Positions 20,439-42,678 of a DNA stretch of 64,000 nucleotides are shown piece after piece. The DNA lies in the NCBI GenBank assembly GCA_964580035.1, contig CAZOJC010000005.1, forward strand, positions 9,198 to 73,197, written 5' to 3'. A program made the translations under genes and the position numbers. The DNA comes from an uncultured Candidatus Peribacteria bacterium. Lineage in GTDB: Bacteria; Patescibacteriota; Gracilibacteria; Peribacterales; Peribacteraceae. Positions within the stretch are counted from its first letter, which is position 1. The number at the start of each line of letters is the position of its first letter. The notes beneath the pieces are model-generated. The model made no database searches. It worked only from the letters and a program-made list of their open reading frames with translations, and had not been told where the DNA came from.

Positions 20439-20526
20439 AGCAATAGAAGAGTAGCGCTCGCAGGGCGAAATGCAAATGGGGAGTAAATGTGAGAATACAT
20501 TCCTAGGCACCCGAGCTAATGATGAC

Positions 20527-22935: not shown

Positions 22936-22962
22936 AGGTACTGCTACAGGACCCCCATCAGC

Positions 22963-24927
22963 CTAGCGAGGTTCTTGGGTGTTATCGGATGCCTCGGTAT
23001 GAGCGGAGGCAGGCGAGGTAGTCAGTGTAGGTGATGATGTTTTTTCAGTCTCGTTCTTGATCAATTCCGATATTCTTACGGCTAATTCTGCTTCATTCAT
23101 TGTATTTGCAATGATAAGTAATGCTTGTAGCTTCTTAACATCGTAAGGCGGATTCATTGATAGTATTTTTTTTTGAATTTTATTTTGAAGCGAAACCAAC
23201 TGTGTTTTCAGTGAAGAAATGAGCACTTGATCCTGAAGTGGATTGCTGATTGCATTATTAGTTAGTATTTTCACTGCAATATATTTATCCCCAAGCCATT
23301 CCACGGTAGTTTCTTCAGTTTCAATTATTGAATTAATTTCAAAGCTTAAGTCTATAAATTGATTATTTAGATCGATCAATGCTTGTAAAGCAATCTTTAC
23401 ATCTTCATTCGCAGTATTTTTCATCTTGTCTGTCAGAATGTTCACCCTGATACGGGCATCAAATTCTCCCGATATGTTTTGCTGTATAGAGCGTAATTCT
23501 TGTTGTATTTCCGGACTCACATCGGTGAGTGGGAGTGGTGAGGAACTGGGCGTAGCTGTAGTGGCAGGAGCGTTATTAGCTTGATAAGGTGGTTTGGTTA
23601 GATTGGATACCTTGGCAGGAGCGAGAGACAAATCAGATTCAGCATCTCCCTGCTTGTTGATATCTTCTCCTGTCTGTGACTTTTCTTTATTGCTCGATTT
23701 TTCTATTGTCGGGCTGCGAGTAGCAGTAGCTCCGGTAGGTGCTTTTGCAGCAGGAGGCGAAGTAGGAGCGGGAGGCGAATCAGGCGTAGAAGATTCTTCC
23801 CGACTTTCAGTTCTCGGAGTGGTCGTTTCTCTCTTGATAAATTCTTTAAGAGATTTTTCGAGATTTGTATCACGAATAGTGCAACCTTGTACTTTAGCTA
23901 AAAGTGATTTTGCCTCGTTTTTTTGCACATCGCTGATAGGGTACTGATCGGATGACTCAAATGCTTCTTCCCCGCTGTTGGGAAAAAGTAAGTCACTACA
24001 TTGTGTATTCAGATCTAGTAATTCTATCAAGTCACTAGCATATCTACCTTCGTATTGCTTCAATTCATCTGTAAGGATCCTGATCCTTTTACTGATATCT
24101 ACTTCATCCTTTAAATTCTTTTCTATTTCTTTTTTCCATTTTTCATTTTCACTCGCTTCATCAGGATTATGAGTATCTATCGGAGGGCTGCTTGTAGAAG
24201 TAGCAGGAACAGCAGCAGGAGCTGGAGCAGCAGCAGTAGGAACTGGAGCTAGAGTAGCTGCAGGAGCTTGAGCTGGAGCAGCAGTAGGAGCTGGAGCAGG
24301 AACAGCAAGTTGAGGTGTATTGAGGAAATTCACTCTCTTCCACTGTCCTCCGTTGATTGAATAGCTATATCCAAGGCCCTTTGTTTGAATGGTAAGGCTA
24401 TTTTGACCGTAGGGTCTGTCCACCTGATAATCATTTCCATTTAAATTCCCAAATTGTGTTGTCTGAGGAGTGATCTGAATCGGATTATGGTAACTATCGA
24501 ACAAAATTGAGACGTTGTCATAAGGTGTAATGTCTAAACGAGAATCGCTAGTGTGGAATTTTGTTTCCACATCACGAGATCCTATCAATGATGAACTTTC
24601 AGCAGTATTCATTTGCTGTTCATAGCCAGCTAAAAGTCCACTCAGCTGAGGAGCAGTGAGGCCGTTCAGTTGGCTATTAAACGTGTTGAGATGGGCGAGC
24701 CATTGATTTCCCAAATTCTCATTATTTCTTTCTTTGCAGAGACGTGCCATCTCCAGCATCCTGACCCTCACATTATCTGCTCTCGCGAGCATTTTTTGCA
24801 TCTCTGCGGCGCTTCCCTCTCCTGGTGTGCTGGTAGGTGCAGTAGGAGCAGACTCAGTAGAAGGAAATTTATACACTCTCCTCTCCTCTGCAAAACTGTG
24901 ACCGTAGAACGAATGTGTGTGTTTCAT
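22963..24927 (-). CDS. Hypothetical 654-aa protein with duplicated helical module and Ala/Pro/Thr-rich linkers
   Basis: Two similar modules: DISKRIRILTDELK...LLDLNTQCSDLLF (24061-24110 region) and FDARIRVNILTDKMK...LIDLNNQFIDLSF (23421-23460 region). A/P linker PAPAPTAAPAQAPAATLAPVPTAAAPAPAAVPA. Confidence 0.7.
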   Translation of the reverse strand: MKHTHSFYGHSFAEERRVYKFPSTESAPTAPTSTPGEGSAAEMQKMLARADNVRVRMLEMARLCKERNNENLGNQWLAHLNTFNSQLNGLTAPQLSGLLAGYEQQMNTAESSSLIGSRDVETKFHTSDSRLDITPYDNVSILFDSYHNPIQITPQTTQFGNLNGNDYQVDRPYGQNSLTIQTKGLGYSYSINGGQWKRVNFLNTPQLAVPAPAPTAAPAQAPAATLAPVPTAAAPAPAAVPATSTSSPPIDTHNPDEASENEKWKKEIEKNLKDEVDISKRIRILTDELKQYEGRYASDLIELLDLNTQCSDLLFPNSGEEAFESSDQYPISDVQKNEAKSLLAKVQGCTIRDTNLEKSLKEFIKRETTTPRTESREESSTPDSPPAPTSPPAAKAPTGATATRSPTIEKSSNKEKSQTGEDINKQGDAESDLSLAPAKVSNLTKPPYQANNAPATTATPSSSPLPLTDVSPEIQQELRSIQQNISGEFDARIRVNILTDKMKNTANEDVKIALQALIDLNNQFIDLSFEINSIIETEETTVEWLGDKYIAVKILTNNAISNPLQDQVLISSLKTQLVSLQNKIQKKILSMNPPYDVKKLQALLIIANTMNEAELAVRISELIKNETEKTSSPTLTTSPASAHTEASDNTQEPR

Positions 24928-24945
24928 AATGGTCTGGCAAAAGAA

Positions 24946-25266
24946 TTAGAGAGCATTAATAGCTGCTTCAGCAGTGGCGAGATCGCCCTCTTGAGTCGCA
25001 TGTTCATCGTCATGACGCATAGCGCGCTCTGCAGTAGCAATCTTGTGCTCGGCCTCCACGATAATTTTCTCCATTTCTTGGAGTGCAATGCGCGAATCTT
25101 CCTCAGCCATCTTATCTTGGTCTTCATTCATCTTCACGAGGTCTTGGTAGAGCGCTTCACGCTTTTCTGGCGTGAGTGCGAGTGAGAGGCTGAGAATGCG
25201 AGGATGCTCAGCAGTGTCGATGTGCGTGAGAGAGGGGAGCTTTTGCATGAATGTGTCGTGCGTCAT
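24946..25266 (-). CDS. Small (106-aa) acidic helical hypothetical protein
   Basis: Start at MTHDTFMQKL makes an ATGA overlap with the upstream stop at 25263. Motif SLALTPEKREALYQDLVKMNEDQ is shared with ORF 36745-36987. Confidence 0.55.
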   Translation of the reverse strand: MTHDTFMQKLPSLTHIDTAEHPRILSLSLALTPEKREALYQDLVKMNEDQDKMAEEDSRIALQEMEKIIVEAEHKIATAERAMRHDDEHATQEGDLATAEAAINAL

Positions 25267-26072
25267 TGGGAAGGGGAGGAAGTGGATTTGTTGGGCTGCC
25301 AAGTGTAATCACCAAGCGCTTTTGCTAGAGCTTTCTTCCATTCTCCTTTATCGTTAGGATTGATGTAGATAACAGGCACGCTGCCGCGCGGAATCATGGG
25401 CCCAGCAATTCTGAGGCGGTAACCGGCGGAAGGATCTTGACGAATGTCGAACGTGATACCCGCTTTCTTGGCCTTCACGAGGAGATTTAGGAGTTCAGAA
25501 TCGCTGGCGTTCAGTTTGAGGTACTCCGGTACCGTATATTCTGTGTCTCCGTCTACAGAGCGGGAAAAATATCTCTCGAGAGGCCGAGAATCGGATGCTT
25601 TGGGATACGTAAGCATGCTCGCTACTAATCGTGGAAAACTTATAATGCCGCCTGCTCCAGGAATCATGCTCATCATTTGCTCAGTTTCTTCTGTACGCTG
25701 CTGATTCAATGTAACTTCACGCTCAGTAAGCTGATTTTCATAGAACCGAAGATGCTTATCGAGCGTTTGTAACTTTTGGTCTGCACCGACATTCTGCTTG
25801 AAGCTCCAGTGTGAATAGTGATCGGTCACTTTCGCGCGCCACTCCTGCCAAGCCTTCCTTTGCGCTGGCAAGTGAGTGATCATAGAGTCAATTCTCTCTA
25901 ACACCTTCGCTAATCGCACATCCAATGCACGCTTCTTTGTATCAAAATCTCTTCTTTGTTCATTCTGTTCACTGCCCCCAGTAATGGCATTCTTTACTCT
26001 CTCAAGAAACTGAAAGTGAAGCAGGCGAGATTCGCTAGAACGCTGAGAGTGAAAGAGTGTTGTGCGTGTCAT
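25263..26072 (-). CDS. Hypothetical 269-aa protein (first gene of the four-gene operon)
   Basis: Intact ORF. An extended -10 lies 20 nt upstream. No family recognised. Confidence 0.65.
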   Translation of the reverse strand: MTRTTLFHSQRSSESRLLHFQFLERVKNAITGGSEQNEQRRDFDTKKRALDVRLAKVLERIDSMITHLPAQRKAWQEWRAKVTDHYSHWSFKQNVGADQKLQTLDKHLRFYENQLTEREVTLNQQRTEETEQMMSMIPGAGGIISFPRLVASMLTYPKASDSRPLERYFSRSVDGDTEYTVPEYLKLNASDSELLNLLVKAKKAGITFDIRQDPSAGYRLRIAGPMIPRGSVPVIYINPNDKGEWKKALAKALGDYTWQPNKSTSSPSQ

Positions 26073-26092
26073 ATGTGAGGAGGAATCCTATC

Positions 26093-26101
26093 ATTATAAC
26101 A
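26093..26101 (-). promoter_or_regulatory. Extended -10 element TGTTATAAT upstream of the four-gene operon
   Basis: The minus strand reads TGTTATAAT, ending 20 nt before the ATG at 26072. The -35 region is weak (TGTCAA). Confidence 0.4.
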
Positions 26102-26154
26102 TACGGTTCACTCTTTTGACAGTGATTCACTCGCTGTATCTGAGAAGGCGGCTA

Positions 26155-26766
26155 TTATTTGGAGCAAGTCCGGTTTGATATATGAAATTTCTTGAGCAGC
26201 ATGAGGGCATCAAACACTTTAGAACTTATTTTTACATGTGGTGTAAAACAGCCGTGTATGCCTTGCTCTGTATTACGCATTGTTATGGTAAGGTCTGCAT
26301 TTAAATGAGATCGGAATTGATCATAATTCAGAGCAGAAGAACCTTTGTTGACTTCCACATATCTCACTATGAGTGCATCTTTCAGAAGTAATAGAATACA
26401 ATGAGGCATTTTGAGCGACGTATAGGCCTCATTTTGCTTGCAGACAGCATTTTCCCCCGCATGCGCGAAAGCAGTCTCTAATAATTTCTTTACTTCATTA
26501 ATCATAGGATAACTCTCAAATGTGCAGATATAGTTGCCAGCATTCGACCGTTCATACTCTCCTGTAATAATATGTGAAACAGTATTGGCCAATTTACACA
26601 CTTCGATAATTTGGATTTCTGAAAAATGAAGATATGAACCACTTACAAAACATTGAATGAGGAATTCTGCAGTTATTTTCAGCAAGTCTAGTTCGCCAGG
26701 ACATTGTATTTTTGGGGTATTGGTGGAGGTAGAAAGAAAACCATTTTTTTTATCCTTCCTCCGCAA
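26155..26766 (-). CDS. Hypothetical protein, possibly the 3' portion of a gene interrupted by the IS element
   Basis: 203-aa AT-rich ORF whose only upstream start is a TTG lying inside the GC-rich IS left end. Confidence 0.4.
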   Translation of the reverse strand: MRRKDKKNGFLSTSTNTPKIQCPGELDLLKITAEFLIQCFVSGSYLHFSEIQIIEVCKLANTVSHIITGEYERSNAGNYICTFESYPMINEVKKLLETAFAHAGENAVCKQNEAYTSLKMPHCILLLLKDALIVRYVEVNKGSSALNYDQFRSHLNADLTITMRNTEQGIHGCFTPHVKISSKVFDALMLLKKFHISNRTCSK

Positions 26767-27295
26767 AACCCCCGGCGTCAGCCGGGTGGATGAAGGGGAT
26801 CCGGCATCGTTGGTCTAGAATTGCAGCATGCAGCATCAGTACAAAAGGCAGTCCAATTGTGTGTATCATTGCATCTACCACCTTGTTCTCTGCACAAAAT
26901 ACCGACGCAAGATTTTCAACGACGGAATTTTTGCGTACATGCGCGAAATCCTTAGAGAGATCCCCGCCCACTATCCCGAAGTGGAGATCCTCGAGATCAA
27001 TCATGACAAAGACCATGTTCATCTCATGCTCTGGATTCCACCCAAAATGTCCGTTGGTAAGGTGGTGAACATTCTCAAAGTGAACACCGCTCGTCACCTC
27101 AAGCAAAAATTTCCCTTCTTGAAAGAAGTCTACTGGGGAACAGATGGCATCTGGTCAGACAGTTATTTTGTATCCACCGTTGGTATCAACGAAGAGATTA
27201 TTCGAAAATACATTGAGCATCAGGGCAGGGAAGATGCCGGACAGCAACGGCTGAAACTCGTGTAAGCCACCACCGTAAGGTGGTGGTAGTTCACT
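26755..27295 (+). mobile_element. IS200/IS605-family insertion sequence (tnpA only); boundaries approximate
   Basis: A GC-rich ~540-bp segment inside AT-rich DNA. Subterminal hairpins CCCGGC-GTCA-GCCGGG (26771-26786) and CCACCACC-GTAA-GGTGGTGG (27267-27286) flank a Y1 transposase gene. Confidence 0.7.
26828..27265 (+). CDS. tnpA: IS200/IS605 family Y1 (HUH) transposase TnpA
   Basis: YHLVLCTKYRRKIF, HUH motif DHVHLML and catalytic-Tyr region WSDSYFVSTVG. 145 aa. Confidence 0.9.
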   Translation: MQHQYKRQSNCVYHCIYHLVLCTKYRRKIFNDGIFAYMREILREIPAHYPEVEILEINHDKDHVHLMLWIPPKMSVGKVVNILKVNTARHLKQKFPFLKEVYWGTDGIWSDSYFVSTVGINEEIIRKYIEHQGREDAGQQRLKLV

Positions 27296-27562
27296 GGCTT
27301 CAAAATAATCTACCAATGCCGATATTTCTTGCCATGATTTATCATCGGAGTTTGTAGTGAGTAGGATTGCAAATGCATTTTTCAAAATTATTTGGGATTG
27401 ATTTCTATGAACAGTAGTACAATATTTTAGTAAAAATGCATTTACTATACACTGTACGTATTCTCCTTTGAATATTAGATCAAATTCCGAATTTCGCATA
27501 TTGAGTATATAGCGAGCTCGATCCTGTAAGCCATTATCAGAATTTCCGTTCTGAGTATTCAT
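27155..27562 (-). CDS. Hypothetical ORF, probably the 5' portion of the IS-interrupted gene; the last ~45 codons read into the IS right end
   Basis: AT-rich up to ~27292. The ORF then continues through the IS hairpin (encoding ELPPPYGGG) and antisense to the tnpA 3' end. Confidence 0.35.
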   Translation of the reverse strand: MNTQNGNSDNGLQDRARYILNMRNSEFDLIFKGEYVQCIVNAFLLKYCTTVHRNQSQIILKNAFAILLTTNSDDKSWQEISALVDYFEASELPPPYGGGLHEFQPLLSGIFPALMLNVFSNNLFVDTNGGYKITV

Positions 27563-27717
27563 TATAATATAATTAAAAACCTTATTACAAATTTGTCAAT
27601 AATACTGCCACAATATGTGTGTTATTGGCTTATTCATGAGGAATAATGACTGTTCCATGAAAATGTATTCGCAGAGATGAGCATACAACAATAGTACTGA
27701 TGAGTGTGCACACGTAC

Positions 27718-28896
27718 TCACTCCACCCAAAGCAGCAGGCTCTTTAAGTAATCCACTTCAGGGTGATAGAGATTCACCGGATGATCGAACGCTTGACGAT
27801 GACGCTGAAGAATGCGCACATTTCGCCGCGCTTGTCTGGCCGCATGGAAGACAATGGTTTGAAATGTCTGCGGATCGATTTGGTACGAGCATGAGCAGGT
27901 GAGGAGCATGCCTCCCGGAGGAAGAATCTGCATCGCCATGCGGTTCATGTCGACGTACGCGCCCTTGGCTTGATCGATGTCCGTACTCCGCTTAGCGAAT
28001 GCCGGCGGGTCGAGAATGATGAAGTCGTAGGGCTTGAGAGCAGGACGCTTGCGGAGAAAGTCGAAGACATCCACAGCGTGAGCATCGAACTGCGATGCAT
28101 CGATGCCGTTTATCTGCATGTGCTCTCTCGCCCGTGTGAGCGCAGCTTCATCGTAATCAACCGCATCGGCAGAGAGTGCTCCGCCCATGAGCGCGGACAG
28201 AGAAAAGCCGCCAACGTAACTGCAGCAGTCCAGCACCACCCGTCCAGCCGCAGTGGATCGAACGAGGCTGCGCATGTCTCGCTGATCTAAAAAGAGCCCC
28301 GTTTTCTGGCTACCTTCAAGACTGATGAGAAATTGAAGCCCTCTCTCAACTACAGAGATCACTCCTTCTCTTTTGCCAGAGAGCCACCCTTCGCGGGGTT
28401 CCAGTCCTTCTTGTTTCCGACCGCTTCCCGTAGATTTCTCGAAAATCGCTTCAGGTCCGCACAATTCCTTAAGAAGGCTCACGAGCCAGTCTCGCAGGCG
28501 TTCCATGCCAAGAGTTGTGAGCTGCAGTACCAGGGTCGTTCCGTACTGATCCACGATGAGGCCGGGAATACCGTCTCCTTCAGCATTGACGAGGCGAAAC
28601 GCAGTTGTTTCGCTACCAGAAAAGAATGCCTTTCTCATCTCAATTGATCGCTTGATGCTTCTGCGAAGGCTCTCGAGAGGGTCTCCTTCTTCAAACGCTA
28701 TTGCCCGTAAACAAATGTATGCCTTCAGATTCACCGTTGCGTAGCAGAGGAAGCTGCCTTCATGACTGACGACGCGTACGATGCTGCCTGTCTTGATGCC
28801 TTCCAGCGACTGGATGGCATTTTTGTACACCGAATGATGCTTGTTTTTAAGGTGTGCGTCTCGGCCTGGCTTGAGCGTCACTGTGAGGTACGACAT
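27718..28896 (-). CDS. rlmI: Class I SAM-dependent 23S rRNA (cytosine-C5) methyltransferase, RlmI-like (PUA + MTase)
   Basis: Start at MSYLTVTLKPGRDAHLKNKHHSVYKNAI (PUA-like). VLDCCSYVGGFSL and FIILDPPAF motifs. Confidence 0.8.
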   Translation of the reverse strand: MSYLTVTLKPGRDAHLKNKHHSVYKNAIQSLEGIKTGSIVRVVSHEGSFLCYATVNLKAYICLRAIAFEEGDPLESLRRSIKRSIEMRKAFFSGSETTAFRLVNAEGDGIPGLIVDQYGTTLVLQLTTLGMERLRDWLVSLLKELCGPEAIFEKSTGSGRKQEGLEPREGWLSGKREGVISVVERGLQFLISLEGSQKTGLFLDQRDMRSLVRSTAAGRVVLDCCSYVGGFSLSALMGGALSADAVDYDEAALTRAREHMQINGIDASQFDAHAVDVFDFLRKRPALKPYDFIILDPPAFAKRSTDIDQAKGAYVDMNRMAMQILPPGGMLLTCSCSYQIDPQTFQTIVFHAARQARRNVRILQRHRQAFDHPVNLYHPEVDYLKSLLLWVE

Positions 28897-28904
28897 ACGA
28901 GGCA

Positions 28905-29885
28905 CTATGCAATCGGCGGCATATCGCACACGAGTTTGGGGGGCAACACTTTGTGTGTTGGCACCTTGCCTGCATGCCACTCGTGGATGGATTGGAATGT
29001 CTCGGTGAACATCTTGTGCATACTGTCATCCGCGTAGAAGGCGATGTGAGGAGTGGCGACGACATTTGGATGACTCGTGAGCTCCTTATTTTCCTCAAAG
29101 TTTGATTCATGCTCCATCACGTCCAAAAGCGCTCTCGACACTTTTCCGCTCTCAAGAGCTTTGAGAAGGGCCTTGCTGTCGATGAGGCTGCCGCGCGCGG
29201 TATTCACCAGAATCACGCCGTCTTTCATCTGAGCGAAGACGGCATCATTGAGGAGGTGATTGGTGGAAGGCATAGCAGGTACATGGAGCGTAATGATGTC
29301 GCTACCTGCAATCATCTCGGCAAATGAGACGTACTTCACGCCAAAAAATTCCTGTAGCTCCATGGTGCGACATTGATCTACCGCGAGGATCGTCATGCCA
29401 AAGCCAAAGGCAATGCGAGCCACAGCTCTGCCGATCTTGCCGGTCCCGAGAATGCCAATTGTCTTATTCTTGAGCGCAACGCCTCGCAGCCCTCTGTAAT
29501 CAAATTCTCCGCTCGACACACGCTTATCGCCCTCCGGAATATGTCTGAGCGTGGAGAGCAGCAGCGCGAAGACGTGCTCGGCTATGACGTGCGATCCGTA
29601 ATCCGGCACATTGCAGACGATGATGCCCTTCTCCTCGCAGGCTGCGATATCGATGTGATCAAAGCCGACAGATCGCGTGCAGAGGAGCCTGAGCTTTGGG
29701 AGCTTCTCGATTACTGCTTTTGTAAACTGCGTGTAGATGAAGGGGGAAATCACCTCGGCATCGCGGCAGAGAGAGATGAGTGCATCTCCCGCAAGGGAGC
29801 CGTCACCAAAGACGGCATCGGGGAATTCAGCGAGAACGAACGGGCGATCTTCTGGCTCAGTATCAAGAAAGAGAGGGGCAGACAT
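28905..29885 (-). CDS. D-isomer-specific 2-hydroxyacid dehydrogenase
   Basis: NAD-binding motif GILGTGKIGRAVARIA; NTARG; TPHIAF catalytic His region. Confidence 0.85.
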   Translation of the reverse strand: MSAPLFLDTEPEDRPFVLAEFPDAVFGDGSLAGDALISLCRDAEVISPFIYTQFTKAVIEKLPKLRLLCTRSVGFDHIDIAACEEKGIIVCNVPDYGSHVIAEHVFALLLSTLRHIPEGDKRVSSGEFDYRGLRGVALKNKTIGILGTGKIGRAVARIAFGFGMTILAVDQCRTMELQEFFGVKYVSFAEMIAGSDIITLHVPAMPSTNHLLNDAVFAQMKDGVILVNTARGSLIDSKALLKALESGKVSRALLDVMEHESNFEENKELTSHPNVVATPHIAFYADDSMHKMFTETFQSIHEWHAGKVPTHKVLPPKLVCDMPPIA

Positions 29886-29935
29886 ACGGGCGAAGTATAG
29901 AGCCGAAGCTGTGTATAGGCGAATGTATTTGGAAT

Positions 29936-32900
29936 TCAGAGGCCACGCTTCTCACAACGAGAATTGACAATTTCTGCGTACACCGAAGCGCCGACAATGA
30001 GAATGGCGCTGAGAAGCAGCAGCGGAGTTGGTTTCACAGAGTGAACGGCAAACACCTCGAGAGAGAATGTGATGAGAATGGAAAGATTGAACATCATGTA
30101 TGCCAAGTAGCCGTCAATACGCTTGAAAGCGGCGTAATTGAGCAATTGTCCGATGCCCACAAAGAGCCCGATCCCCATACCGAAGAGGAGAGTTCGCAAC
30201 GTTAGCCCGTGCAGTATTGCAGGATTCCATAAAGTGAGCGCGATCATTCCAGGAGCCGTACAAATGAGTAGGCAAAGGAAAATGTGAATATTAAGAAGGA
30301 ATCCATTAACCGATCGATAGCGCTTGCAGTACTCGATTTGGCTAATGGTCACTAGCACATCAAAAAAAGTGGAAATCATCGCAAGGATGTCTCCGGTGAC
30401 AGACGAAGATGCAGAGAGATATTTTGTATTGAATACAAGCAAGGAACTGCCGATGCCCGCCATCACTGCGAGGAGAAAAATGATGAGGATAGTGCGCGGT
30501 TGCCGCAAATACGGAATCTCTCGTCGCCAGAACACGGCAGCAATGAGTAGCCCTATCACAGGCGCGAAATTATTGAATAGGAGAAGATTGGTACCGCTGG
30601 TGTAGATCAGACTGGCATTTTTAAAGTACATAACACCAATTTGTCCGATAACGAAGAGGGTAAAAAATCGATCATAGACTAGAGAGAACGAAACATTCTT
30701 TTTTTTCATTCGCTGCCGCACGTACGTTGCGCCGTAGACGATGAGAGAAGGAATGAGTACGCCAAGGCCGAGGAGAAAGGTTCTGAGGAACGGTGAGAGA
30801 TCGTTGGCAGGTGTGTACTTGATGTAAATGGGTTCGAGTCCCCAGACAAAAATAGCGGCGAGTCGTATGGCATACCCCACTCTCTTGCGTCGTCGAATGG
30901 ATTTCCAATCGGCTGCGGAAATGTGTGTGCTGCGAGATTTCTCGATAACAGAGAAGAGCGCTTCTGCCTGAAAAAAGCGGTAGCCGATGAAGAGGAGGGA
31001 GAGCACGAAGAGCGCAAGTAAGGGCAGAATGCTCACGTCAGATTGAGTGCTCAAAAGCCGCAGAACAATGAGGAGAAGAGCGATGATATTGAACAGGAAG
31101 CCAACGCCGACAAACCATCGATCGGTGCGCATGCGCACGATGTATTTCTGCATCAGCCGCAGGAGTAGGGTATTGGCAATGAGCACCGGCACGAGAGGGA
31201 GTGAATGCATGATTGCGCGAGGGATGCCCGGTGTGGGGAGCCAATACTGATACTGTGGGAGGAATATCACATCAGCGAGGAGGAACGCGAACGACACGCA
31301 AAAAGCGCCTACGAGCAGAGCGTTATCCCGATACGGAACGAGCGATTGCACTGAAGAAACGGCATCCTGCCGTTCCAGCGCATCGATGAAATCCGCATAG
31401 TGAAGGCGATCTGATGCGCTGCCAATGAGAATGATGGAGAAGACGCCAGTTTTGCTATCGAAACGCACGCGAGTACTTCGGATATCGATTCCTTTGGTGC
31501 GGCTGAACTCAACGAGCGAAGAGAGAACATCGTGCTGCCGTTCCTGCACTCCCGTAACACACAGGCGAAAGGTGTACCGAGAAGGACGATGCCGAGAAAA
31601 ACACCTCCCCTGAGAAGTGTCGCTGAAGACTGCGAATACCAATTCACGAGGCCGAAGACTTCCTTCACCAATCATGGCGAGCACTTCACTGAAGTGTGCG
31701 CGACGAAACAGTGCTGCAGCTTTCTGCCGATCCGATTTCCGAATCTCATGAAGAGGGCCGCGATTGTAGCGATCCATTTCCGTCTGCAGGAGGCTCGCAC
31801 CGAGGGCTATTTTGTCTTCACGACTTCGCTTTTTAAGCACATCGACCACATGACTCCTCGCATTGCTCGTGATGACGTACTTGAGCCACTCGGCATCGAC
31901 GTGTTCTTGTCGGCTGTCTATTTCCATGTACACCATATCATCCTCTTCGAGGGCATGAGAGAGCGAGACGGTTCTTCCGGCCACGCGTGCGGCGACCGAT
32001 GCATTTGCTCGCGCTCCGAACGCGACGTACGCAGCATCCAGGACAGTGCCACCTCTCGGCAGAGACACGCGAATGTCATTTACGATGACGACAATGCTTT
32101 CCTGTAAAATATCTGATTCCAATCCCTGCCAGAATGCTTGGCTGCTCTCGCGGGTAGTAAGATCGAGATCTTCCGATCTCTTCAGCCACGGAAATTGCGA
32201 GAGAGGATCTATCGACTCTTTTCCAAAGAGACTCGTGACAATGCCCTTCTCAGCTTGTTCGTGCATGGACATCGTACGGATACGTATCTCGACGGCTTCC
32301 CCTGTTTTCAGCGTGACGGTTGTGTGAAGGCTGCGGTATCCGGCTGTACCGGGAGTGGCGATGTAATCGCGAAATTGCGCATGGACGGGACGAAACAGCG
32401 TGTGGAGCGATTTCAGGAGTTGGTAGCAGTCATGTTCAGTGCGAACGATAGCAATGATTGAGTACGCATCACATCCGACCATGTCCTGCGTTCTTGTTGC
32501 TCTCTTGAGAGAGGCGCACACATCGTTCGGCTGCAAGAAGAGATCGACTATAGATGTCTGCAATCCATGCGTATCAAGCGACGAACGTATCTCTCCGACG
32601 AGAGAGGCTCCACTCTCTATCCGCTCGCTCTGTCTTTTGATGAATGCCGCTCCCTCTGCGTACACAAGAGGCACGCACACATCACTGTATTCGCAGTACA
32701 CTGCTCGCATGCCAAGGTGCACAGCCAACTTGTAGTACAGATCCATTGTTTCTTTTGCAAAGCGCTTCTTTCGATCACCCTGCAGAAAGTGAATGGTGCG
32801 AATATTGTGGAGTCTGTCGGCAAGCTTGATGATGATCACGCGGATGTCTCTCCGCATAACCTCAAACAGCCGCCTCACCGTTTCAATTTTAGTGTCGAGT

Positions 32901-33250
32901 GATGAATGCTGGCTGAAGTCCGTACTCGAAAACTTAGTGACACCCTCCACGAGCAGCGCCACGTGTCTGCCGAACACCTCCTTGATGTGGGATTTCGTTA
33001 CGGTCGTATCTTCCAGTGTGTCATGCAGAAGGCTGCCGATGATCGTGTCGGCATCTCCATGCCACGAAGCGACTATGAGAGCCGTCTCAATGACGTGATT
33101 GACGTACGGCGTGCTATCCTCTCGCTTTTGCTCCTCGTGCGCGCTCAGTGCCAGATCGTACGCCTGCTGCACGCGTACCTGGTCTTCCTGAGGGAGGTGT
33201 TCAAGGGCTTCTCGTAGGCGAGAGAAGGGAAGAATGTCAGATGCAGCCAT
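29936..33250 (-). CDS. Rel/SpoT-homologue (HD hydrolase, synthetase-like, TGS, ACT) fused to a C-terminal polytopic EamA/DMT-type membrane domain; 1104 aa
   Basis: LLHDTLEDT and IKLADRLHNIRT (HD); DYIATPGTAGYRSLHTTV and EIRIRT (synthetase); TGS LPRGGTVLDAAY; ACT-like aa ~560-635; hydrophobic helices from aa ~644 onward, including an EamA-like stretch AIFVWGLEPIYIKY...FAPVIGLLIAAVFWRREIP. Confidence 0.9.
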   Translation of the reverse strand: MAASDILPFSRLREALEHLPQEDQVRVQQAYDLALSAHEEQKREDSTPYVNHVIETALIVASWHGDADTIIGSLLHDTLEDTTVTKSHIKEVFGRHVALLVEGVTKFSSTDFSQHSSLDTKIETVRRLFEVMRRDIRVIIIKLADRLHNIRTIHFLQGDRKKRFAKETMDLYYKLAVHLGMRAVYCEYSDVCVPLVYAEGAAFIKRQSERIESGASLVGEIRSSLDTHGLQTSIVDLFLQPNDVCASLKRATRTQDMVGCDAYSIIAIVRTEHDCYQLLKSLHTLFRPVHAQFRDYIATPGTAGYRSLHTTVTLKTGEAVEIRIRTMSMHEQAEKGIVTSLFGKESIDPLSQFPWLKRSEDLDLTTRESSQAFWQGLESDILQESIVVIVNDIRVSLPRGGTVLDAAYVAFGARANASVAARVAGRTVSLSHALEEDDMVYMEIDSRQEHVDAEWLKYVITSNARSHVVDVLKKRSREDKIALGASLLQTEMDRYNRGPLHEIRKSDRQKAAALFRRAHFSEVLAMIGEGSLRPRELVFAVFSDTSQGRCFSRHRPSRYTFRLCVTGVQERQHDVLSSLVEFSRTKGIDIRSTRVRFDSKTGVFSIILIGSASDRLHYADFIDALERQDAVSSVQSLVPYRDNALLVGAFCVSFAFLLADVIFLPQYQYWLPTPGIPRAIMHSLPLVPVLIANTLLLRLMQKYIVRMRTDRWFVGVGFLFNIIALLLIVLRLLSTQSDVSILPLLALFVLSLLFIGYRFFQAEALFSVIEKSRSTHISAADWKSIRRRKRVGYAIRLAAIFVWGLEPIYIKYTPANDLSPFLRTFLLGLGVLIPSLIVYGATYVRQRMKKKNVSFSLVYDRFFTLFVIGQIGVMYFKNASLIYTSGTNLLLFNNFAPVIGLLIAAVFWRREIPYLRQPRTILIIFLLAVMAGIGSSLLVFNTKYLSASSSVTGDILAMISTFFDVLVTISQIEYCKRYRSVNGFLLNIHIFLCLLICTAPGMIALTLWNPAILHGLTLRTLLFGMGIGLFVGIGQLLNYAAFKRIDGYLAYMMFNLSILITFSLEVFAVHSVKPTPLLLLSAILIVGASVYAEIVNSRCEKRGL

Positions 33251-33300: not shown

Positions 33301-33320
33301 AAGAGGCCCGAAGGCCTCTT
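33301..33320 (-). terminator. Terminator-like hairpin in the rel 5' leader
   Basis: Perfect 8-bp stem AAGAGGCC / GGCCTCTT with a 4-nt loop. On the minus strand it is followed by TCTTGATATTT. It lies 50 nt upstream of the rel ATG (33250). Confidence 0.45.
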
Positions 33321-33391
33321 ACTCTTTATTGCTGCTTACTTGCAGCCACAACCGCCTGACATAAAGGAATTGGGGAAATAATAACAGGCAC

Positions 33392-33421
33392 ATAATAGTT
33401 TAGTACTAAACTAATTGTCAA
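33392..33421 (-). promoter_or_regulatory. Sigma70-type promoter facing rel
   Basis: The minus strand reads TTGACA (33421-33416), an 18-nt spacer, then TATTAT (33397-33392). Confidence 0.5.
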
Positions 33422-38126: not shown

Positions 38127-38945
38127 CTAGGCAGTTTGATCGGCTTGGTCAAGGCCAAAGCCCCATTTTCGAAAGTATCGCCATGCACTCATGAGGTGGA
38201 TGCGCATCGTCTTCTTCCACAGGGGCGAGAGTATGCCTCCCTCGCTCAGTCGCCTCTCCCTATCCTTCACGCGCACCGTCGGATCGTAGAGCACTCCGTA
38301 TCCCAGCTTTTTTGCTCGACGACAGAAATCAATGTCCTCAAAAAAGAGGAAGAATCGTTCGTCAAATCCCCCAAGCTCACGAAATACTGTCGCGCGTATG
38401 AGCAAGCACGCACCCACAAGCCAATCAACAGGAACCGGAGCCGTGTTTTTCTCTGTCATATCTCGCGCGTACGTACGATGCCACTGTTCCGGAAAGAGTC
38501 GTTTGTGAAAGAGATCACGCATGACAGGAAATGTCCTTGCAGACGGACGAAGCGTGCCATCCGGATACACGAGCGCAGGCCCGACGATGCCGATGTCTGG
38601 CCGCTGTTGCGCGGTTCTGAGGAGTCGTTCAGCCGCATCGGGAGGAAGTACATTATCAGGATTTACGATGAGCAAACACTCACCTCTTGCGATGGAGGCT
38701 GCAAGATTGTTGCCACGACCGTAGCCGATGTTCTCCCTCGTTTCGAGAATTGTAACACTCGGCAACGAGCCAAACCGAGCACGAACCCAACCGACAGATT
38801 CATCGCACGAGTGATTGTCTACAATGATGATTTCCATTTCTTGCGCGAGAGTCTGCGTGAGGAGCGCCTCCACGCACTTCACGGTATCAGCCGGAGACCG
38901 GTAGTTGAGCACGAGGGCGGAGATGGTCGGCGGCATGACTCTCAC
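38127..38945 (-). CDS. Family 2 glycosyltransferase
   Basis: ISALVLNYRSPADTVKCVEALLTQT, IIIVDNHSCDES, ENIGYGRGNN and FFLFFEDIDFCRRA. Confidence 0.85.
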   Translation of the reverse strand: MRVMPPTISALVLNYRSPADTVKCVEALLTQTLAQEMEIIIVDNHSCDESVGWVRARFGSLPSVTILETRENIGYGRGNNLAASIARGECLLIVNPDNVLPPDAAERLLRTAQQRPDIGIVGPALVYPDGTLRPSARTFPVMRDLFHKRLFPEQWHRTYARDMTEKNTAPVPVDWLVGACLLIRATVFRELGGFDERFFLFFEDIDFCRRAKKLGYGVLYDPTVRVKDRERRLSEGGILSPLWKKTMRIHLMSAWRYFRKWGFGLDQADQTA

Positions 38946-38997
38946 TATACCGTACTCACTTCCTCTTCCTTCATCCTCTATACTCTGCCGTGCAGAT

Positions 38998-41310
38998 ATG
39001 AAGCAGCATCACGCAGACGAACGGCTCACCATCATCCGTCGCAGGATTGCGGATGCCCCCACATCTCCGGGTGTGTACCGATGGCTCGATAGTGAGGGAA
39101 ATGTGCTCTACATCGGCAAAGCAAAAAATGTGAGAAACAGGCTCAAGAGTTATGTCAGCGAGGGCTCCAAGCGCTCAGCGTGGACCGAGATAATGGTCAG
39201 ACAGATCGCAGACTTTAGTACGATAGTCGTGAAGAGCGAGCTTGAGGCCCTCATGCTCGAGGCAAATCTCATTAAAGAGTACAAGCCCAAGTACAACATC
39301 ATGCTCAAAGATGACAAAGGGTATTCCTACGTTCGCATGTCTCTCTCTGAACCGTTTCCGCGGGTGGAGCTCGTACGGAGGATGCAGGATGACGATGCCA
39401 AATATTTTGGCCCTTTTCTCAGCTCAAGAGATGTGAGAAAAACACTCGACATGCTCGATGACATTCTTCACTACCGAGCGTGCGAACCTTCGATTGCAGC
39501 CTGCAATGCCCGCAAACAGCAGAGCTCTTCACAGTCTTCTCCTTGCCTGGATTACCAAATAGGGAAGTGCTGCGGACTCTGCATTGGCGAGATTTCACAA
39601 GAAGAATACTTGAGAAGAATTCGCGAAGTAGAACGTTTTTTTCGTGGGAATCTCTCACACGTGGAGAACATTGCAGATGAGCACATGCGAGCCGCAGCGG
39701 CAGACAAAAAATTTGAGAAGGCAGCCCGCATGCGAGATGTGCTCAGGTTTATCGCTCAACTTAAAGAGAAGCAGATCGTATCCGATACGTCAGGAGAAGA
39801 TGCCGACATTGTGGCAGTGGCTATCAGACAGGGAAAAACACAGGTGGTACTCCTTAAATTACGTGATGGAAGAGTGATCGAACAGCTCGGTTTTCCTCTT
39901 CTCGGATGTGCAGAGAGCGCCTCAGAAGCGCTCGGACAATTTTTGCCGCAATATTACTCTCACACCCAAGATATCCCCCCCACACTGTTTTTAAGCGACA
40001 GGCCAGATGCACTCGTTGCGCTTGAACAGTGGCTCAGAGAGCGGCGTGGCGCAGGAGTAAAGGTGTGCGTGCCGGAACGTGGGCGCAAATCGAAATTACT
40101 TGAGATGGCGGAGCGAAATGCCAATGAACAAGTCACGCAGCAATTCGCCGCGTGGGAGGCGGAAACGAAGCGCGTGCAGTCCGCTCTCTCTGAGCTCGCT
40201 TCACTCTTGTCTCTTCCGGGAAATCCCAGAAGAATCGAGGCCTACGACATCTCGCACATGAGTGGCAGCGAAACTGTAGGGAGCATGGTTGTCTTCGAGA
40301 ACGGAAAGCCAAAAAGAGATCACTATCGTTCGTTCAATATGAAGACTGTCACTCACGGGAAGATCGATGATTACGCATCACTTCGAGAGACCCTTCGTCG
40401 CCGTCTCAAGTATCTTACCTATCAGCCGTCTGCGGAAGAGGAAGCGTGGCAGAAGCGTGGAATCACTTTTGCACGGGGCAGAAAAGCAGATGCCGAATTT
40501 CTCTCGAGAGCTTTTTCTCACATTCATGCAGATTCAGTGTCGTTTGTTCCTCGAGACAGCCTCCTCGCTCACCACGAACGAGAAACGATTGCCTGTGCCC
40601 TTCTTCTCACGCACACAACTGGCCTGCGCGAGCTTGCGCAGCCTTGGCTTTCTGAATCGTATCAAGAGGGTCTCTGTATGCCGTACATGATTCGTACACT
40701 CCTCAAGAGTATCAAGAAAGGAAAAGTGTACACAGTGGTGAATGCTGAGCAGGAAATTGCGTTCGCCGATCTCGGCTTCCGATATGTGCGGCAGCCGCCG
40801 CCGGCGCTGACCTCTCGTCTCGAAGAGAATGCTTCTCACATCGTGATGTCTTTCGATGTGAGAGAGAATCGAGCCGATGCGTCGTTCTCCGAAGCACCTG
40901 ATCTCATCCTCATCGACGGAGGTAAAGGCCAGTTGCAGCAGGGCATTGACGTACTCTCGCAGTTGCACCTGTCTATTCCGGTCGCCTCTCTCGCCAAGCG
41001 CCTCGAAGAAGTGTTTGTGCCGAGTCAGGATACGGCAATACCCATGCCCAAGGATTCTCCAGCACAGTTTCTCCTCCAGCATCTGCGAGACGAAGCACAT
41101 CGTTTCGCCAATGACCGCCGCAAGCGCCGAGCAGGCAAAGCTCTCATTCATTCCGCTCTAGACGAAGTGCCCGGCCTCGGCACAGAGACGAAGAAAGCTC
41201 TTCTCCAAGCGTTTCAATCCGTCGATGGCATACGGCAAGCCAGTGACGATGCGCTCTTACAGATAGTAGATCAATCTCAATTAATGGCTCTCAGAGAGGC
41301 TCTCTCGTGA
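38998..41310 (+). CDS. uvrC: Excinuclease ABC subunit C with a ~160-aa internal insertion
   Basis: GIY-YIG motif GVYRWLDSEGNVLYIGKAKNVRNRLKSY; UVR motif; IEAYDISHMSG; PDLILIDGGKGQL; C-terminal HhH. Start chosen at MKQHHADERL. Confidence 0.9.
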   Translation: MKQHHADERLTIIRRRIADAPTSPGVYRWLDSEGNVLYIGKAKNVRNRLKSYVSEGSKRSAWTEIMVRQIADFSTIVVKSELEALMLEANLIKEYKPKYNIMLKDDKGYSYVRMSLSEPFPRVELVRRMQDDDAKYFGPFLSSRDVRKTLDMLDDILHYRACEPSIAACNARKQQSSSQSSPCLDYQIGKCCGLCIGEISQEEYLRRIREVERFFRGNLSHVENIADEHMRAAAADKKFEKAARMRDVLRFIAQLKEKQIVSDTSGEDADIVAVAIRQGKTQVVLLKLRDGRVIEQLGFPLLGCAESASEALGQFLPQYYSHTQDIPPTLFLSDRPDALVALEQWLRERRGAGVKVCVPERGRKSKLLEMAERNANEQVTQQFAAWEAETKRVQSALSELASLLSLPGNPRRIEAYDISHMSGSETVGSMVVFENGKPKRDHYRSFNMKTVTHGKIDDYASLRETLRRRLKYLTYQPSAEEEAWQKRGITFARGRKADAEFLSRAFSHIHADSVSFVPRDSLLAHHERETIACALLLTHTTGLRELAQPWLSESYQEGLCMPYMIRTLLKSIKKGKVYTVVNAEQEIAFADLGFRYVRQPPPALTSRLEENASHIVMSFDVRENRADASFSEAPDLILIDGGKGQLQQGIDVLSQLHLSIPVASLAKRLEEVFVPSQDTAIPMPKDSPAQFLLQHLRDEAHRFANDRRKRRAGKALIHSALDEVPGLGTETKKALLQAFQSVDGIRQASDDALLQIVDQSQLMALREALS

Positions 41311-41375
41311 TGCAATGCTTGAATTATTGACAGAAGTTTTTTTTGAAGTAATTTGCGGTTCTCTTACAGAGAACT

Positions 41376-42170: not shown

Positions 42171-42254
42171 TCATGAACTAGTCATGACTTTCAATTGTCC
42201 CTTCTCAATCGTCTCTGCTATGCTGAGGTGCGTTTCTCTTCCCCACACATTTCT

Positions 42255-42593: not shown

Positions 42594-42639
42594 TTCGATT
42601 CTTTAAAACCGTTTCTCTGTAAGGGGAAGCGGTTTTTTT
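42504..42639 (+). repeat. Direct repeat copy 1 (3' end of the ytxH-like gene plus its terminator)
   Basis: 42504-42604 is identical base for base (101 nt, compared by hand) to 43321-43421. The following ~35 nt terminator is similar but diverged. Confidence 0.9.
42605..42639 (+). terminator. Intrinsic terminator of the ytxH-like gene (usable in both directions)
   Basis: AAAACCGTTTC...GAAGCGGTTTTTTT hairpin plus T-run. The reverse complement is also followed by TTTT, so it can serve the convergent NYN gene. Confidence 0.7.
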
Positions 42640-42678
42640 GATATAAAATCCTTTGACCATTTCCGTTCTCTTGCTATA

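Follow-up and report, generated by a model that had tools for sequence, protein, structure and literature searches.

A long RSH protein, probably hydrolase-only, fused to a DMT-type membrane module in Candidatus Peribacteria

What could become of alarmone control when a long Rel/SpoT homologue (RSH) is built into a transporter-like membrane protein? To our knowledge, all characterised long RSH enzymes are soluble and are controlled by ribosomes, tRNA or soluble partner proteins. The window analysed here, a stretch of 64,000 nucleotides from an uncultured Candidatus Peribacteria bacterium, holds a gene of another build, which we call RSH-DMT (Table 1); our literature search found no paper describing such a fusion. 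Our analysis suggests that its product hydrolyses (p)ppGpp while tethered to the membrane, independently of the ribosome and tuned by the state of the transporter, a statement to which, taken as a whole, we assign a probability of about 0.5.

Table 1. Features of the RSH-DMT locus, in window coordinates.
Feature	Coordinates	Strand	Residues and basis
RSH-DMT gene	29936..33250	(-)	1104-aa ORF, ATG start; probably hydrolase-only long RSH with 4+10-helix membrane module
HD (p)ppGpp hydrolase domain	32666..33178	(-)	aa 25-195; Pfam HD_4 aa 30-181, E 3e-36
Pseudo-synthetase domain	32225..32653	(-)	aa 200-342; fold retained, catalytic/substrate residues lost
Core	32105..32218	(-)	aa 345-382; helix-turn-helix linker between N- and C-terminal halves
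TGS domain, divergent	31916..32098	(-)	aa 385-445; Pfam TGS aa 395-440, 26.5 bits (cut-off 22.2)
Helical AH/RIS region	31628..31888	(-)	aa 455-541; all-helical in model
ACT/RRM-like domain	31343..31576	(-)	aa 559-636; beta-alpha-beta-beta-alpha-beta, secondary structure of full-length model
Extra 4-helix TM bundle	30941..31333	(-)	aa 640-770; structure models, invariant columns
10-helix DMT/EamA transporter fold	29948..30880	(-)	aa 791-1101; N-in/C-in
Upstream cassette	33301..33421	(-)	promoter, mini-ORF and hairpin

The fusion itself is genuine. The single uninterrupted frame described in the original prediction is present exactly, with no internal stop, and the long-RSH layout joined to a polytopic membrane module is borne out by domain calls, by two structure models of high confidence (pLDDT 87.8 and pTM 0.68 for the full-length protein, 89.2 and 0.88 for the membrane part) and by orthologues. 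A survey of homologues finds about 50 full-length orthologues (n=49 analysed) at 36-69% identity in independent NCBI, ENA, JGI and Logan assemblies; the architecture is common to all of them, and those that are named all carry the label Candidatus Peregrinibacteria/Peribacteria. A hidden stop or frameshift near the junction, or an assembly chimera, could in principle have merged two genes, and in one related contig, L016, the RSH half and the membrane half are indeed separate gene calls. We regard an artefact of this kind as extremely improbable, because the two halves are collinear and in one frame in 49 full-length homologues from several assembly sources and in 6 independently assembled genomes, because a separate metagenome contig, L022, encodes a near-identical copy (99.8%), because GC content is 0.53 on either side of the junction with no homopolymers nearby, and because the split in L016 comes from a frameshift. 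We considered L016 as a true two-gene version and rejected it: a frameshift in an A-rich stretch within the ACT domain broke a fused gene. The name of the L016 contig contains '2x'.

The gene is preceded by a short cassette. Its promoter is near-consensus (11/12 matches), with a 14-bp palindrome in the spacer (33392-33421), and is accompanied by a Gly/Cys mini-ORF, MSGGCGCK (33336-33362), and a terminator-like hairpin (33301-33320). This cassette is conserved ahead of RSH-DMT in 6 further genomes and may act as the gene's leader; yet it is a separable unit, since it stands before a different gene in L020/L023. The promoter alone also precedes unrelated genes.

The N-terminal part of the protein is recognisably a long RSH enzyme. 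NCBIfam TIGR00691 (spoT_relA) matches aa 30-547 with E 8e-109; the score of 365 bits lies below the cut-off, which is 499. The closest solved relative by sequence is B. subtilis Rel 6yxa (E 9e-71, aa 13-532). The order of domains is HD, synthetase fold, Core, TGS, helical region and ACT/RRM. In the HD domain the catalytic set is complete (R43, H52, H76-D77, E80-D81, D145 and N149), and not one of these eight hydrolase residues varies among the 49 family members; mean pairwise identity of this domain is 0.60 in the family, the same value as in canonical Rel. One motif differs, the stretch after the first catalytic Arg, which reads R-x-D-G-T/S-P-Y in the family against R-x-S-G-E-P-Y in canonical proteins, Ser being replaced by Asp in 97% of members and Glu by Thr/Ser; we take the family version to resemble that of Mesh1-type small alarmone hydrolases.

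Could the HD domain then act on something other than (p)ppGpp? The altered motif, human MESH1 among the structural matches and the result that no (p)ppGpp synthetase was found in the approximately 200 kb of DNA scanned might all point to another substrate, such as (p)ppApp, NADPH (as reported for Mesh1) or a phosphorylated compound imported by the DMT part, in which case the protein would be a transport-coupled salvage enzyme rather than a regulator of alarmones. We think this quite improbable. The best matches overall are bona fide Rel/SpoT enzymes, with the N-terminal half superposing on Rel NTD structures at TM 0.84-0.89, and nothing departs from the canonical pattern in the H-N-x-R-T segment or among the metal and catalytic HD residues. 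Moreover, the invariant intramembrane residues of the DMT part are acidic or polar and none is basic, which, on the basis of TPT/NST chemistry, argues against a polyphosphate cargo.

The neighbouring synthetase domain has fared very differently. Pfam RelA_SpoT (PF04607) matches aa 261-342 with E 1e-18, and because this match spans only profile positions 25-107, the part with R-x-K-x3-S is missing. We scored twelve synthetase positions in RelSeq numbering (R241, K243, S247, K251, D264, R269, K304, N306, Y308, H312, E323 and Q325); the window protein has, in the same order, Q, N, A, R, D, I, G, A, Y, H, E and R, thus keeping 4 of the 12, and across the 49 family members 1-5 are kept, against all 12 in 66 of 67 canonical Rel proteins. 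The equivalent of the catalytic Q325 (Q347 in RelTt) is Arg in every member, and no member has Arg at the equivalents of R241 and R269. In A. baumannii SpoT, which is synthetase-dead, RelTt R249, R277, D272 and Q347 are all replaced, and the D272 and Q347 changes were called crucial (PMC9974481). RelTt R249, R277 and Q347 correspond to R241, R269 and Q325, the positions altered here. By contrast, 55% of members, with the window protein among them, retain the equivalent of D272 (D264). Identity over the synthetase domain is relaxed, at 0.39 in the family versus 0.54 in canonical Rel.

With all eight HD residues kept and only 1-5 of the twelve synthetase residues, RSH-DMT is in all likelihood a hydrolase-only enzyme with a pseudo-synthetase, as far as its conserved residues can tell. 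The original prediction had called the enzyme hydrolase-biased; the family-wide residue counts go further, and the synthetase looks dead rather than merely weak. The pseudo-synthetase site may nevertheless bind nucleotides in a residual or altered manner, since the D264 and E323 equivalents are retained in about half of the members, including the window protein. The domain also has invariant residues of its own, R323 (100%), K/R280 (97%) and F342.

The regulatory domains that follow have changed unevenly. The Core, with an invariant W355, is among the most conserved segments of the family and has tightened (identity 0.58 versus 0.41 in canonical Rel), as has the AH-RIS region (0.52 versus 0.36), where Pfam RelA_AH_RIS over aa 458-550 gives the window protein 22.6 bits, just below the cut-off of 23.8, and an orthologue, P0014, 31.8 bits. 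The TGS domain, which is beta-rich in the structure model, has on the other hand relaxed (0.41 versus 0.63). At the position of H420 of B. subtilis Rel the window protein has Phe, and the family has Tyr, His and Leu in 44, 24 and 14% of members. In B. subtilis Rel, H420 stacks on the tRNA CCA end, and activation by A-site tRNA requires both H420 and ZFD+RRM (PMC7797070). The window protein has no Pfam ACT or ZFD match, unlike canonical proteins; the zinc-finger domain is absent, only 18 residues separating the helical region from the ACT fold, with no Cys-rich segment. In the model a linker of just 3 residues joins the ACT/RRM fold to the first transmembrane helix, and the conserved part of the ACT domain is helix alpha-2, DRLxxADFxxxLERQ, which lies beside the membrane. 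The absence of the zinc finger, the poor conservation of the TGS His and the 3-residue link are additions to the original prediction. We infer that an RRM welded to the membrane in this way cannot reach the ribosomal intersubunit space. The missing ZFD, the unconserved H420 position and the membrane-bound RRM together point to a loss of ribosome and tRNA input, and RSH-DMT is thus probably ribosome-independent.

The hydrophobic C-terminal region begins at aa 640 and has 14 transmembrane helices. The assignment of this whole region to EamA/DMT in the original prediction holds for the last ten helices, which have the DMT fold, while the first four form an extra bundle. A Foldseek search against the PDB returns DMT-superfamily transporters for all of the top 39 matches, later ones having a probability of at most 0.23; the best is YddG 5i20 (E 1e-6, TM 0.76-0.80 over about 310 residues), followed by TPT, SLC35B1, CST, LicB, PfCRT and Vrg4. 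Pfam EamA (PF00892) finds one stretch in the window copy, which at 22.6 bits falls short of the cut-off of 28.2; this threshold is exceeded by the orthologues P0014 (40.9 bits over 2 stretches) and P0027 (34.4 bits) as well as by stand-alone relatives (36-54 bits), both repeats being matched in some of these proteins. The predicted cytoplasmic loops contain 25 Lys and Arg residues and the external loops 2, a positive-inside tally, and the topology of the module places the RSH part in the cytoplasm. The DMT subfamily is divergent and tiny, with 87 representatives among 1.84 billion proteins, some of them stand-alone proteins of about 320 aa, and is marked by the motifs GYxxR, TSxTN..NNFxPV, WRxxIPYL, QIxY, EAF[KR]RIDG and AExxN. 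It matches no NCBIfam subfamily and, at the level of sequence, no solved DMT protein; we saw no set of genes recurring around the stand-alone relatives. These relatives have no 4-helix bundle and match only from query position ~146 onward.

Is the membrane module more than a way of holding the enzyme in place? Gene fusions often mean functional association only, and the geometry between domains is loosely defined in our models, where pTM falls from the value for the membrane part to that for the whole protein. The two halves might then work independently, the fusion serving only to localise a constitutive hydrolase or to fix a 1:1 stoichiometry. Several features make this a distinctly unlikely account. 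A single helix would suffice as an anchor; the 3-residue link from ACT to the membrane is rigid, unlike a tether, and the alpha-2 helix at that point is the very part of the ACT domain that is conserved; and a conserved 4-helix bundle, with R708 (in the cytoplasmic-loop motif M-R-T-D-R-W) and N721 invariant, has been inserted although the topology needs none. Identity in the DMT part is 0.44-0.46 within the family, above that of the ACT and pseudo-synthetase domains, and its invariant polar residues lie on cavity-lining helices and are the same in complete stand-alone genes. Judged by this conservation and by its cavity-lining residues, the transporter is more than a mere anchor.

How could a transporter act on a hydrolase in a protein of this kind? 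We propose that its conformational or ligand state drives the HD domain allosterically, along a path that would run from the DMT fold through the 4-helix bundle, ACT helix alpha-2 (LERQ) and the Core to the HD domain. The supply of a transported metabolite, probably non-anionic, would then set the rate of alarmone removal, making the protein a 'transceptor', and the alarmone would come from another enzyme in the organism or from uptake from outside. In SpoT[Hs] of A. baumannii the CTD and pseudo-synthetase activate HD allosterically via the Core, and removal of RRM+ZFD lowers activity ~5-fold (PMC9974481); this precedent makes an allosteric relay plausible. When the SpoT tau-state is compared with our model, however, the inter-domain arrangements fail to superpose (TM 0.39). 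By analogy, then, coupling from transporter to hydrolase may exist, with a chance that we put a little short of even. One related arrangement bears on the direction of coupling: in P0127, a single cluster, ACT-alpha2, the 4-helix bundle and the DMT part are joined to another, non-RSH N-terminal region with a weak wHTH below the Pfam cut-off, a swap that fits the pattern expected of an input module.

The architecture is also compatible with coupling in the opposite sense, in which the DMT transporter would be gated by (p)ppGpp bound to the HD site or by some other nucleotide in the pseudo-synthetase and reset by hydrolysis, so that metabolite transport is tuned to the stringent state. The invariant R323, K/R280 and F342 could form a new ligand site in the pseudo-synthetase, and the DMT part retains the residues of its stand-alone relatives and so is probably a working transporter. 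This reading is nonetheless unlikely in our judgement: a full, perfectly conserved HD catalytic site exceeds what a sensor needs, the membrane module of P0127 on a DNA-binding-like domain better fits a module that serves as input, and our literature search found no precedent for it. Returning to control of the hydrolase by the transporter, its strongest form is a true transceptor, in which transporter state directly sets (p)ppGpp degradation and replaces ribosome and tRNA input, in a protein that may be the only RSH in these small-genome bacteria; this form we hold to be rather doubtful. If RSH-DMT were the sole RSH, either an unrecognised synthetase would have to exist or the alarmone, or a related nucleotide, would enter from outside.

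More generally, our results suggest that the membrane, in place of the ribosome, controls the rate of signal removal in these cells. A long RSH built into the membrane, synthetase-less and without the ribosome-sensing parts, would constitute a separate route of alarmone control, and long RSH proteins would thereby have turned into pure hydrolases with a regulatory pseudo-synthetase a second time, independently. RSH-DMT, whose domains are clearly bounded and whose active site is complete, would with its candidate input module be a compact system in which to study how C-terminal signals reach HD. It also raises the question of whether candidate-phyla bacteria make (p)ppGpp, and by which enzyme, and it defines a small DMT subfamily for which the RSH fusion partner provides a functional handle.

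The nearest known counterpart in design is SpoT[Hs] of A. baumannii and other Moraxellaceae (PDB 7QPR; PMC9974481), in which a competent HD domain is likewise paired with a degenerate pseudo-synthetase acting as a scaffold for regulation, starved ribosomes bring about no activation and the C-terminal domains regulate HD via the Core; by E-value (1e-24) it is also the best full-length structural match. However, SpoT[Hs] is soluble, keeps its ZFD and co-exists with RelA, whereas RSH-DMT has no ZFD and is integral to the membrane via its 14 helices. Because NCBI taxonomy places the phylum of RSH-DMT, Peregrinibacteriota, in 'Bacteria candidate phyla', separately from Proteobacteria, synthetase loss here is presumably independent of that in the SpoT[Hs] lineage. 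Nearest by sequence and by N-terminal structure are the bifunctional Rel enzymes (B. subtilis 6YXA, S. equisimilis 1VJ7, S. aureus 7OIW), which have the same domain order and keep all 12 synthetase residues, the TGS His and ZFD+RRM; in RSH-DMT these have been lost or changed and a membrane module has been gained. With DMT/EamA proteins such as YddG (5I20) the fusions have in common the 10-helix fold of two 5-helix repeats, N-in/C-in, but the preceding 4-helix bundle is extra and the signature motifs are those of their own subfamily. Transporter folds, fused to signalling outputs or partnered with them, also act as the input to signalling in bacterial transceptors such as the SLC5-histidine kinase CbrA and the Amt-histidine kinase fusion. 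While our literature search found no described transporter fusion with an RSH-family hydrolase as output, RSH-DMT would by analogy follow the same logic, its output being an RSH second-messenger hydrolase.

Our analysis of the RSH-DMT gene, in which an RSH half is followed by a membrane half, indicates that the fusion is real, and the original prediction of a long-RSH layout joined to a membrane module in one ORF is supported and sharpened by domain matches, homologues and structure models. The reading frame is uninterrupted, and a hydropathy scan finds hydrophobic helices packed densely from aa ~645 to the C-terminus. The NCBIfam spoT_relA model matches aa 30-547 (E 8e-109) with 365 bits, under its trusted cut-off of 499, and among solved structures B. 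subtilis Rel comes closest (6yxa, E 9e-71, aa 13-532). Among 5.8 billion clustered proteins, about 50 full-length homologues of 1075-1141 aa were found, at 36-69% identity and 98-100% query coverage, drawn from NCBI, ENA, JGI and Logan assemblies; the named ones are all labelled Candidatus Peregrinibacteria, Peribacteria or Peribacteraceae. Below them the score falls sharply, from 541 to 285 bits, and from there on come ordinary Rel proteins of ~710 aa. Public records call the protein merely 'HD domain-containing protein' or 'GTP pyrophosphokinase'.

Six independently assembled genomes show the two halves collinear and in one frame, a separate contig from a metagenome (L022) has a copy 99.8% identical to that of the window, and GC and GC3 are even across the junction, the closest homopolymers being far away. 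Together with the ~50 homologues, these observations rule out an assembly artefact or two separate genes, and no hidden stop or frameshift lies at the junction. One orthologue (L016) is called as two genes, of 575 and 496 aa. Extending its second frame upstream restores a complete ACT-like fold, and the frame switch sits in an A-rich stretch inside that domain, on a contig whose name bears '2x'. The restored fold and the A-rich switch rule out a naturally split gene and point to a broken fusion; the frameshift is probably an assembly error.

Features of the RSH-DMT gene, its surroundings and related loci (window positions unless a locus or aa is named)
Feature	Position	Strand	Remark
RSH-DMT gene	29936-33250	-	1104 codons, ATG start
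HD_4	aa 30-181		Pfam, E 3e-36
RelA_SpoT	aa 261-342		Pfam, E 1e-18; only profile positions 25-107 of 113 matched
TGS	aa 395-440		Pfam
RelA_AH_RIS	aa 458-550		Pfam
EamA, single sub-threshold stretch	aa 792-926		Pfam, 22.6 bits against cut-off 28.2
Broken RSH-DMT orthologue	L016 4700-5200
Cassette	33301-33421	-
Cassette	L001 7742-7870
Cassette	L005 7830-7990
Cassette	L006 6830-6990
Cassette	L007 6832-6990
Cassette	L008 6831-6990
Cassette before RlmI-type gene	L020 1-260
RSH-DMT and 2-hydroxyacid dehydrogenase	28905-33250	-
UvrC to pyrK block	38905-49049	+
HD-domain protein	43475-44566	+	363 aa
Low-GC stretch	20000-28000		GC 0.40-0.46
Low-GC stretch	50000-56000		GC 0.36-0.39
NNMT/PNMT/TEMT-family methyltransferase	50582-51715
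P0137 and two methyltransferase genes	L009 886-3301
P0127	L011 6001-8343
P0127	L012 1948-4290

Catalytic positions were scored on an alignment of 49 fused proteins and 67 canonical Rel proteins (the ordinary ~710-aa comparison set) from the same search. All eight hydrolase residues (R44, H53, H77, D78, E81, D82, D144 and N148, RelSeq numbering) are kept in 49 of 49 fused proteins, whereas only 1-5 of the twelve synthetase residues (R241, K243, S247, K251, D264, R269, K304, N306, Y308, H312, E323 and Q325) remain, a set intact in 66 of the 67 canonical proteins. In the window these twelve positions read Q N A R D I G A Y H E R; across the fused family Arg is never found at R241 or R269, and Arg always takes the place of Q325. 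The enzyme had been predicted to be hydrolase-biased, and the residue counts agree: judged from its sequence, the cytoplasmic half is a long RSH of the hydrolase-only kind, with a dead synthetase. That the HD domain acts on a substrate other than an alarmone strikes us as very unlikely. In SpoT[Hs], the SpoT of A. baumannii that experiment has shown to be synthetase-dead, the residues corresponding to RelTt R249, R277, catalytic Q347 and catalytic D272 are all replaced (PMC9974481). The fused family resembles it in having replaced the equivalents of R249, R277 and Q347 (R241, R269 and Q325), but differs in that the D272/D264 equivalent is retained in 55% of members, the window protein included. 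Since the residues of the synthetase fold core are conserved (C275, Y276, H283, P288, D295, Y305, T310, the IRT segment, M329 and G336), the domain survives as a scaffold. No second RSH-like ORF or synthetase was found in the window or the related loci examined, which cover a small fraction of a genome.

Moreover, the elements with which an RSH protein senses the ribosome and tRNA look to have been lost. In the full-length AlphaFold model (pLDDT 87.8, pTM 0.68) the helical region ends at aa 541 and is followed, after an 18-residue linker, by an ACT/RRM unit of beta-alpha-beta-beta-alpha-beta form at aa 559-636, with no room between the two for a zinc-finger domain (ZFD) and no Cys-rich segment. 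The Pfam ACT or C-terminal models found among the canonical matches are absent from all fused proteins. In the same model the last ACT strand ends at 636 and the first TM helix begins at 640, so close that the ACT/RRM domain must be fixed against the membrane. In RelA this is the domain that reaches deepest into the ribosome, and a membrane-fixed ACT/RRM would be incompatible with ribosome binding. As for tRNA, the TGS histidine (H420 in B. subtilis, H432 in E. coli) stacks on the 3' CCA of uncharged tRNA and its substitution abolishes activation, and activation by A-site tRNA is lost without ZFD and RRM (PMC7797070). At the H420 position the window protein has Phe, and the fused family has Tyr, His or Leu in 44, 24 and 14% of members.

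The membrane half (aa 640-1104), modelled on the family alignment (pLDDT 89.2, pTM 0.88), consists of 14 long helices, which confirms the many-helix region originally predicted. With the helix boundaries of the model, 25 Lys and Arg residues fall in predicted cytoplasmic loops and the tail and 2 in external loops, so that the topology is N-in/C-in and the RSH half lies in the cytoplasm. The motifs WRxxIPYL, QIxYxKR, FKRIDG and MRTDRW are placed in cytoplasmic loops. Assignment of the module to the EamA/DMT type holds for the last ten helices (aa ~791-1101) but not for the first four (aa 640-770), which form an additional bundle with an invariant R708 in an M-R-T-D-R-W loop and an invariant N721. 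When the model is compared with the PDB by Foldseek, the first 39 matches are, without a break, all of the DMT superfamily: the best is YddG (5i20, E 1e-6, TM 0.76-0.80 normalised to target, ~310 columns), and others include triose-phosphate translocator, SLC35B1, CMP-sialic acid transporters, LicB, PfCRT and Vrg4, while beyond them the probability is at most 0.23. The Pfam EamA cut-off, which the window protein misses, is passed by the orthologues P0014 (with 40.9 bits over two stretches) and P0027 (with 34.4 bits) and by eight stand-alone relatives (36-54 bits).

An exhaustive phmmer search with aa 640-1104 against 1.84 billion representatives returned only 87 proteins at E <= 0.001, about half of them ~1100-aa fusions and ~25 of them proteins of 314-349 aa that match the ten-helix part only. 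Three of the stand-alone relatives (P0137, P0140 and P0149) are encoded by complete genes that lie within their contigs; P0133, located at a contig edge, is probably a fragment. Stand-alone and fused proteins share signature motifs and the invariant residues G153, Y154, R157, Y275, G314, Y335, G389, E426 and E454 (numbered within the aa 640-1104 fragment), so the DMT of the fusions has not degenerated to an anchor. Plain tethering, in which one chain does no more than hold hydrolase and transporter together, seems to us quite unlikely. With regard to cargo, NCBIfam has no subfamily match for the DMT part, a profile search of the PDB matched no solved DMT by sequence, and the surroundings of the stand-alone genes are inconsistent and give no substrate clue. 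Behind P0137 lie two genes for SAM-dependent methyltransferases, with overlapping or abutting boundaries, an arrangement that no other stand-alone relative repeats. Within the membrane the invariant positions hold polar or acidic residues (T884, T887, N888, D954, N1055, E1065 and E1093) and no basic ones; in terms of general DMT chemistry, such residues speak against the transport of a polyphosphate, ppGpp itself included. A further protein, P0127 (780 aa, seen in two assemblies), is 35% identical to the window protein over 495 aa, comprising the last alpha-beta of the ACT fold and all 14 helices, and differs in its N-terminal ~280 residues, where a weak TrmB/MarR-type winged helix scores under the Pfam cut-off. 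It is a second kind of fusion with the same ACT-alpha2, four-helix and DMT module.

What could such an architecture do? Mean pairwise identity, compared domain by domain between the fused family and canonical Rel, is 0.60 against 0.59 for HD, 0.39 against 0.54 for the synthetase and 0.41 against 0.63 for TGS, while it is 0.58 against 0.41 for the Core and 0.52 against 0.36 for the helical AH-RIS region; by this measure the latter two appear as the segments with tightened constraint in the fused family. Within the ACT fold the best-conserved part is helix alpha-2 (DRLxxADFxxxLERQ), adjoining the membrane. Activation of HD in SpoT[Hs] comes from the C-terminal domains together with the pseudo-synthetase and runs via the Core; deletion of RRM and ZFD costs ~5-fold in activity, and deletion of TGS-HEL as well ~42-fold (PMC9974481). 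In RSH-DMT a rigid junction connects ACT/RRM to an intact-looking transporter fold, and the enzyme, with its complete HD site, is cytoplasmic. In the most economical reading, to which we give a probability of roughly 0.4-0.5, the hydrolase would respond to the transporter's state, which would be passed on via the four-helix bundle and ACT alpha-2 to the Core and from there to the hydrolase. The same junction could instead serve a transporter gated by the alarmone, which we consider unlikely. The best match of the full-length model by E-value is SpoT[Hs] (7qpr, 1e-24), but a tau-like state is unsupported by the model because the domain arrangement does not superpose on it (TM 0.39).

A compact cassette lies directly upstream of RSH-DMT in the window and in six other genomes. 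It has a promoter close to the consensus, in the spacer of which lies a perfect palindrome of 14 bp (TTGACA-ATTA-GTTTAGTACTAAAC-TATAAT), then a ~30-nt pyrimidine-rich leader, a Gly/Cys-rich mini-ORF of 8-12 codons (MSGGCGCK in the window; MIGGKGCSC, MSGGCSCGC and MTGNGCGCGK among those elsewhere) and a terminator made up of a GC hairpin and a following T-run. The promoter DNA is near-identical between genomes whose proteins are just 45-60% identical. Between the cassette of the window and the start codon of RSH-DMT no further promoter is predicted, so the gene may depend on read-through. The full mini-ORF cassette (MFGGGCCGGSCK) also stands directly upstream of an RlmI-type methyltransferase gene with no RSH-DMT (L020, L023), and a metagenome scan finds the palindrome-bearing promoter alone before unrelated genes (L017, L018, L019, L021 and L024); in L017-19 and L021 an ATG lies just ~7 nt past the -10 box, and these transcripts look leaderless. 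The cassette is thus a separable unit. We rejected a dedicated riboswitch or attenuator of RSH-DMT, given the occurrence of cassette or promoter before other genes, the lack of an Rfam match and a leader fold that is marginally stable (z = -1.97). The cassette may be a Cys/Gly-sensing attenuator, for which Cys-rich leader mini-ORFs of mycobacteria provide a precedent (bioRxiv 10.1101/834739), or an independent micro-gene, and its distribution points to an operator or regulon that these organisms share, or to a promoter module that they reuse.

The order UvrC-pyrG-pyrD(-pyrK)-RSH-DMT is kept on one strand in six genomes. In the window the block UvrC, HD-domain protein, pyrG, pyrD, pyrK is intact, and RSH-DMT, with a 2-hydroxyacid dehydrogenase gene 50 bp downstream, has been moved and inverted, its mini-ORF cassette moving along. 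A pyrimidine operon link is countered by this move away from an intact pyr block, by the presence in that block of the unrelated UvrC and by the promoter-terminator cassette that parts pyrD from the RSH gene; we regard the linkage as inherited gene order, not as functional evidence. The HD-domain protein between UvrC and pyrG has a weak generic HD-domain match and does not match the RSH hydrolase profile. Two stretches of low GC, against ~0.50 elsewhere in the window, hold large ORFs without a Pfam match (802, 654, 269, 203 and 719 aa), together with genes for an NNMT/PNMT/TEMT-family methyltransferase and an aldehyde-dehydrogenase-like protein, and may be acquired islands. Across the whole 64-kb window no Rfam family reaches its gathering score, and no tRNA, rRNA or riboswitch was detected.

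Full-text searches of the literature brought up no account of a long RSH joined to a membrane or EamA module, and in the text of two RSH classification papers the word 'transmembrane' is absent and no membrane-fused RSH appears. Specialists who work on the stringent response would find the fusion surprising, and it is directly testable; all our functional statements rest on sequence together with predicted structure. Long RSH proteins, a hydrolase-only state and the DMT fold are each already known; the novelty lies in how they are combined, in the missing ZFD and in the additional four-helix bundle.
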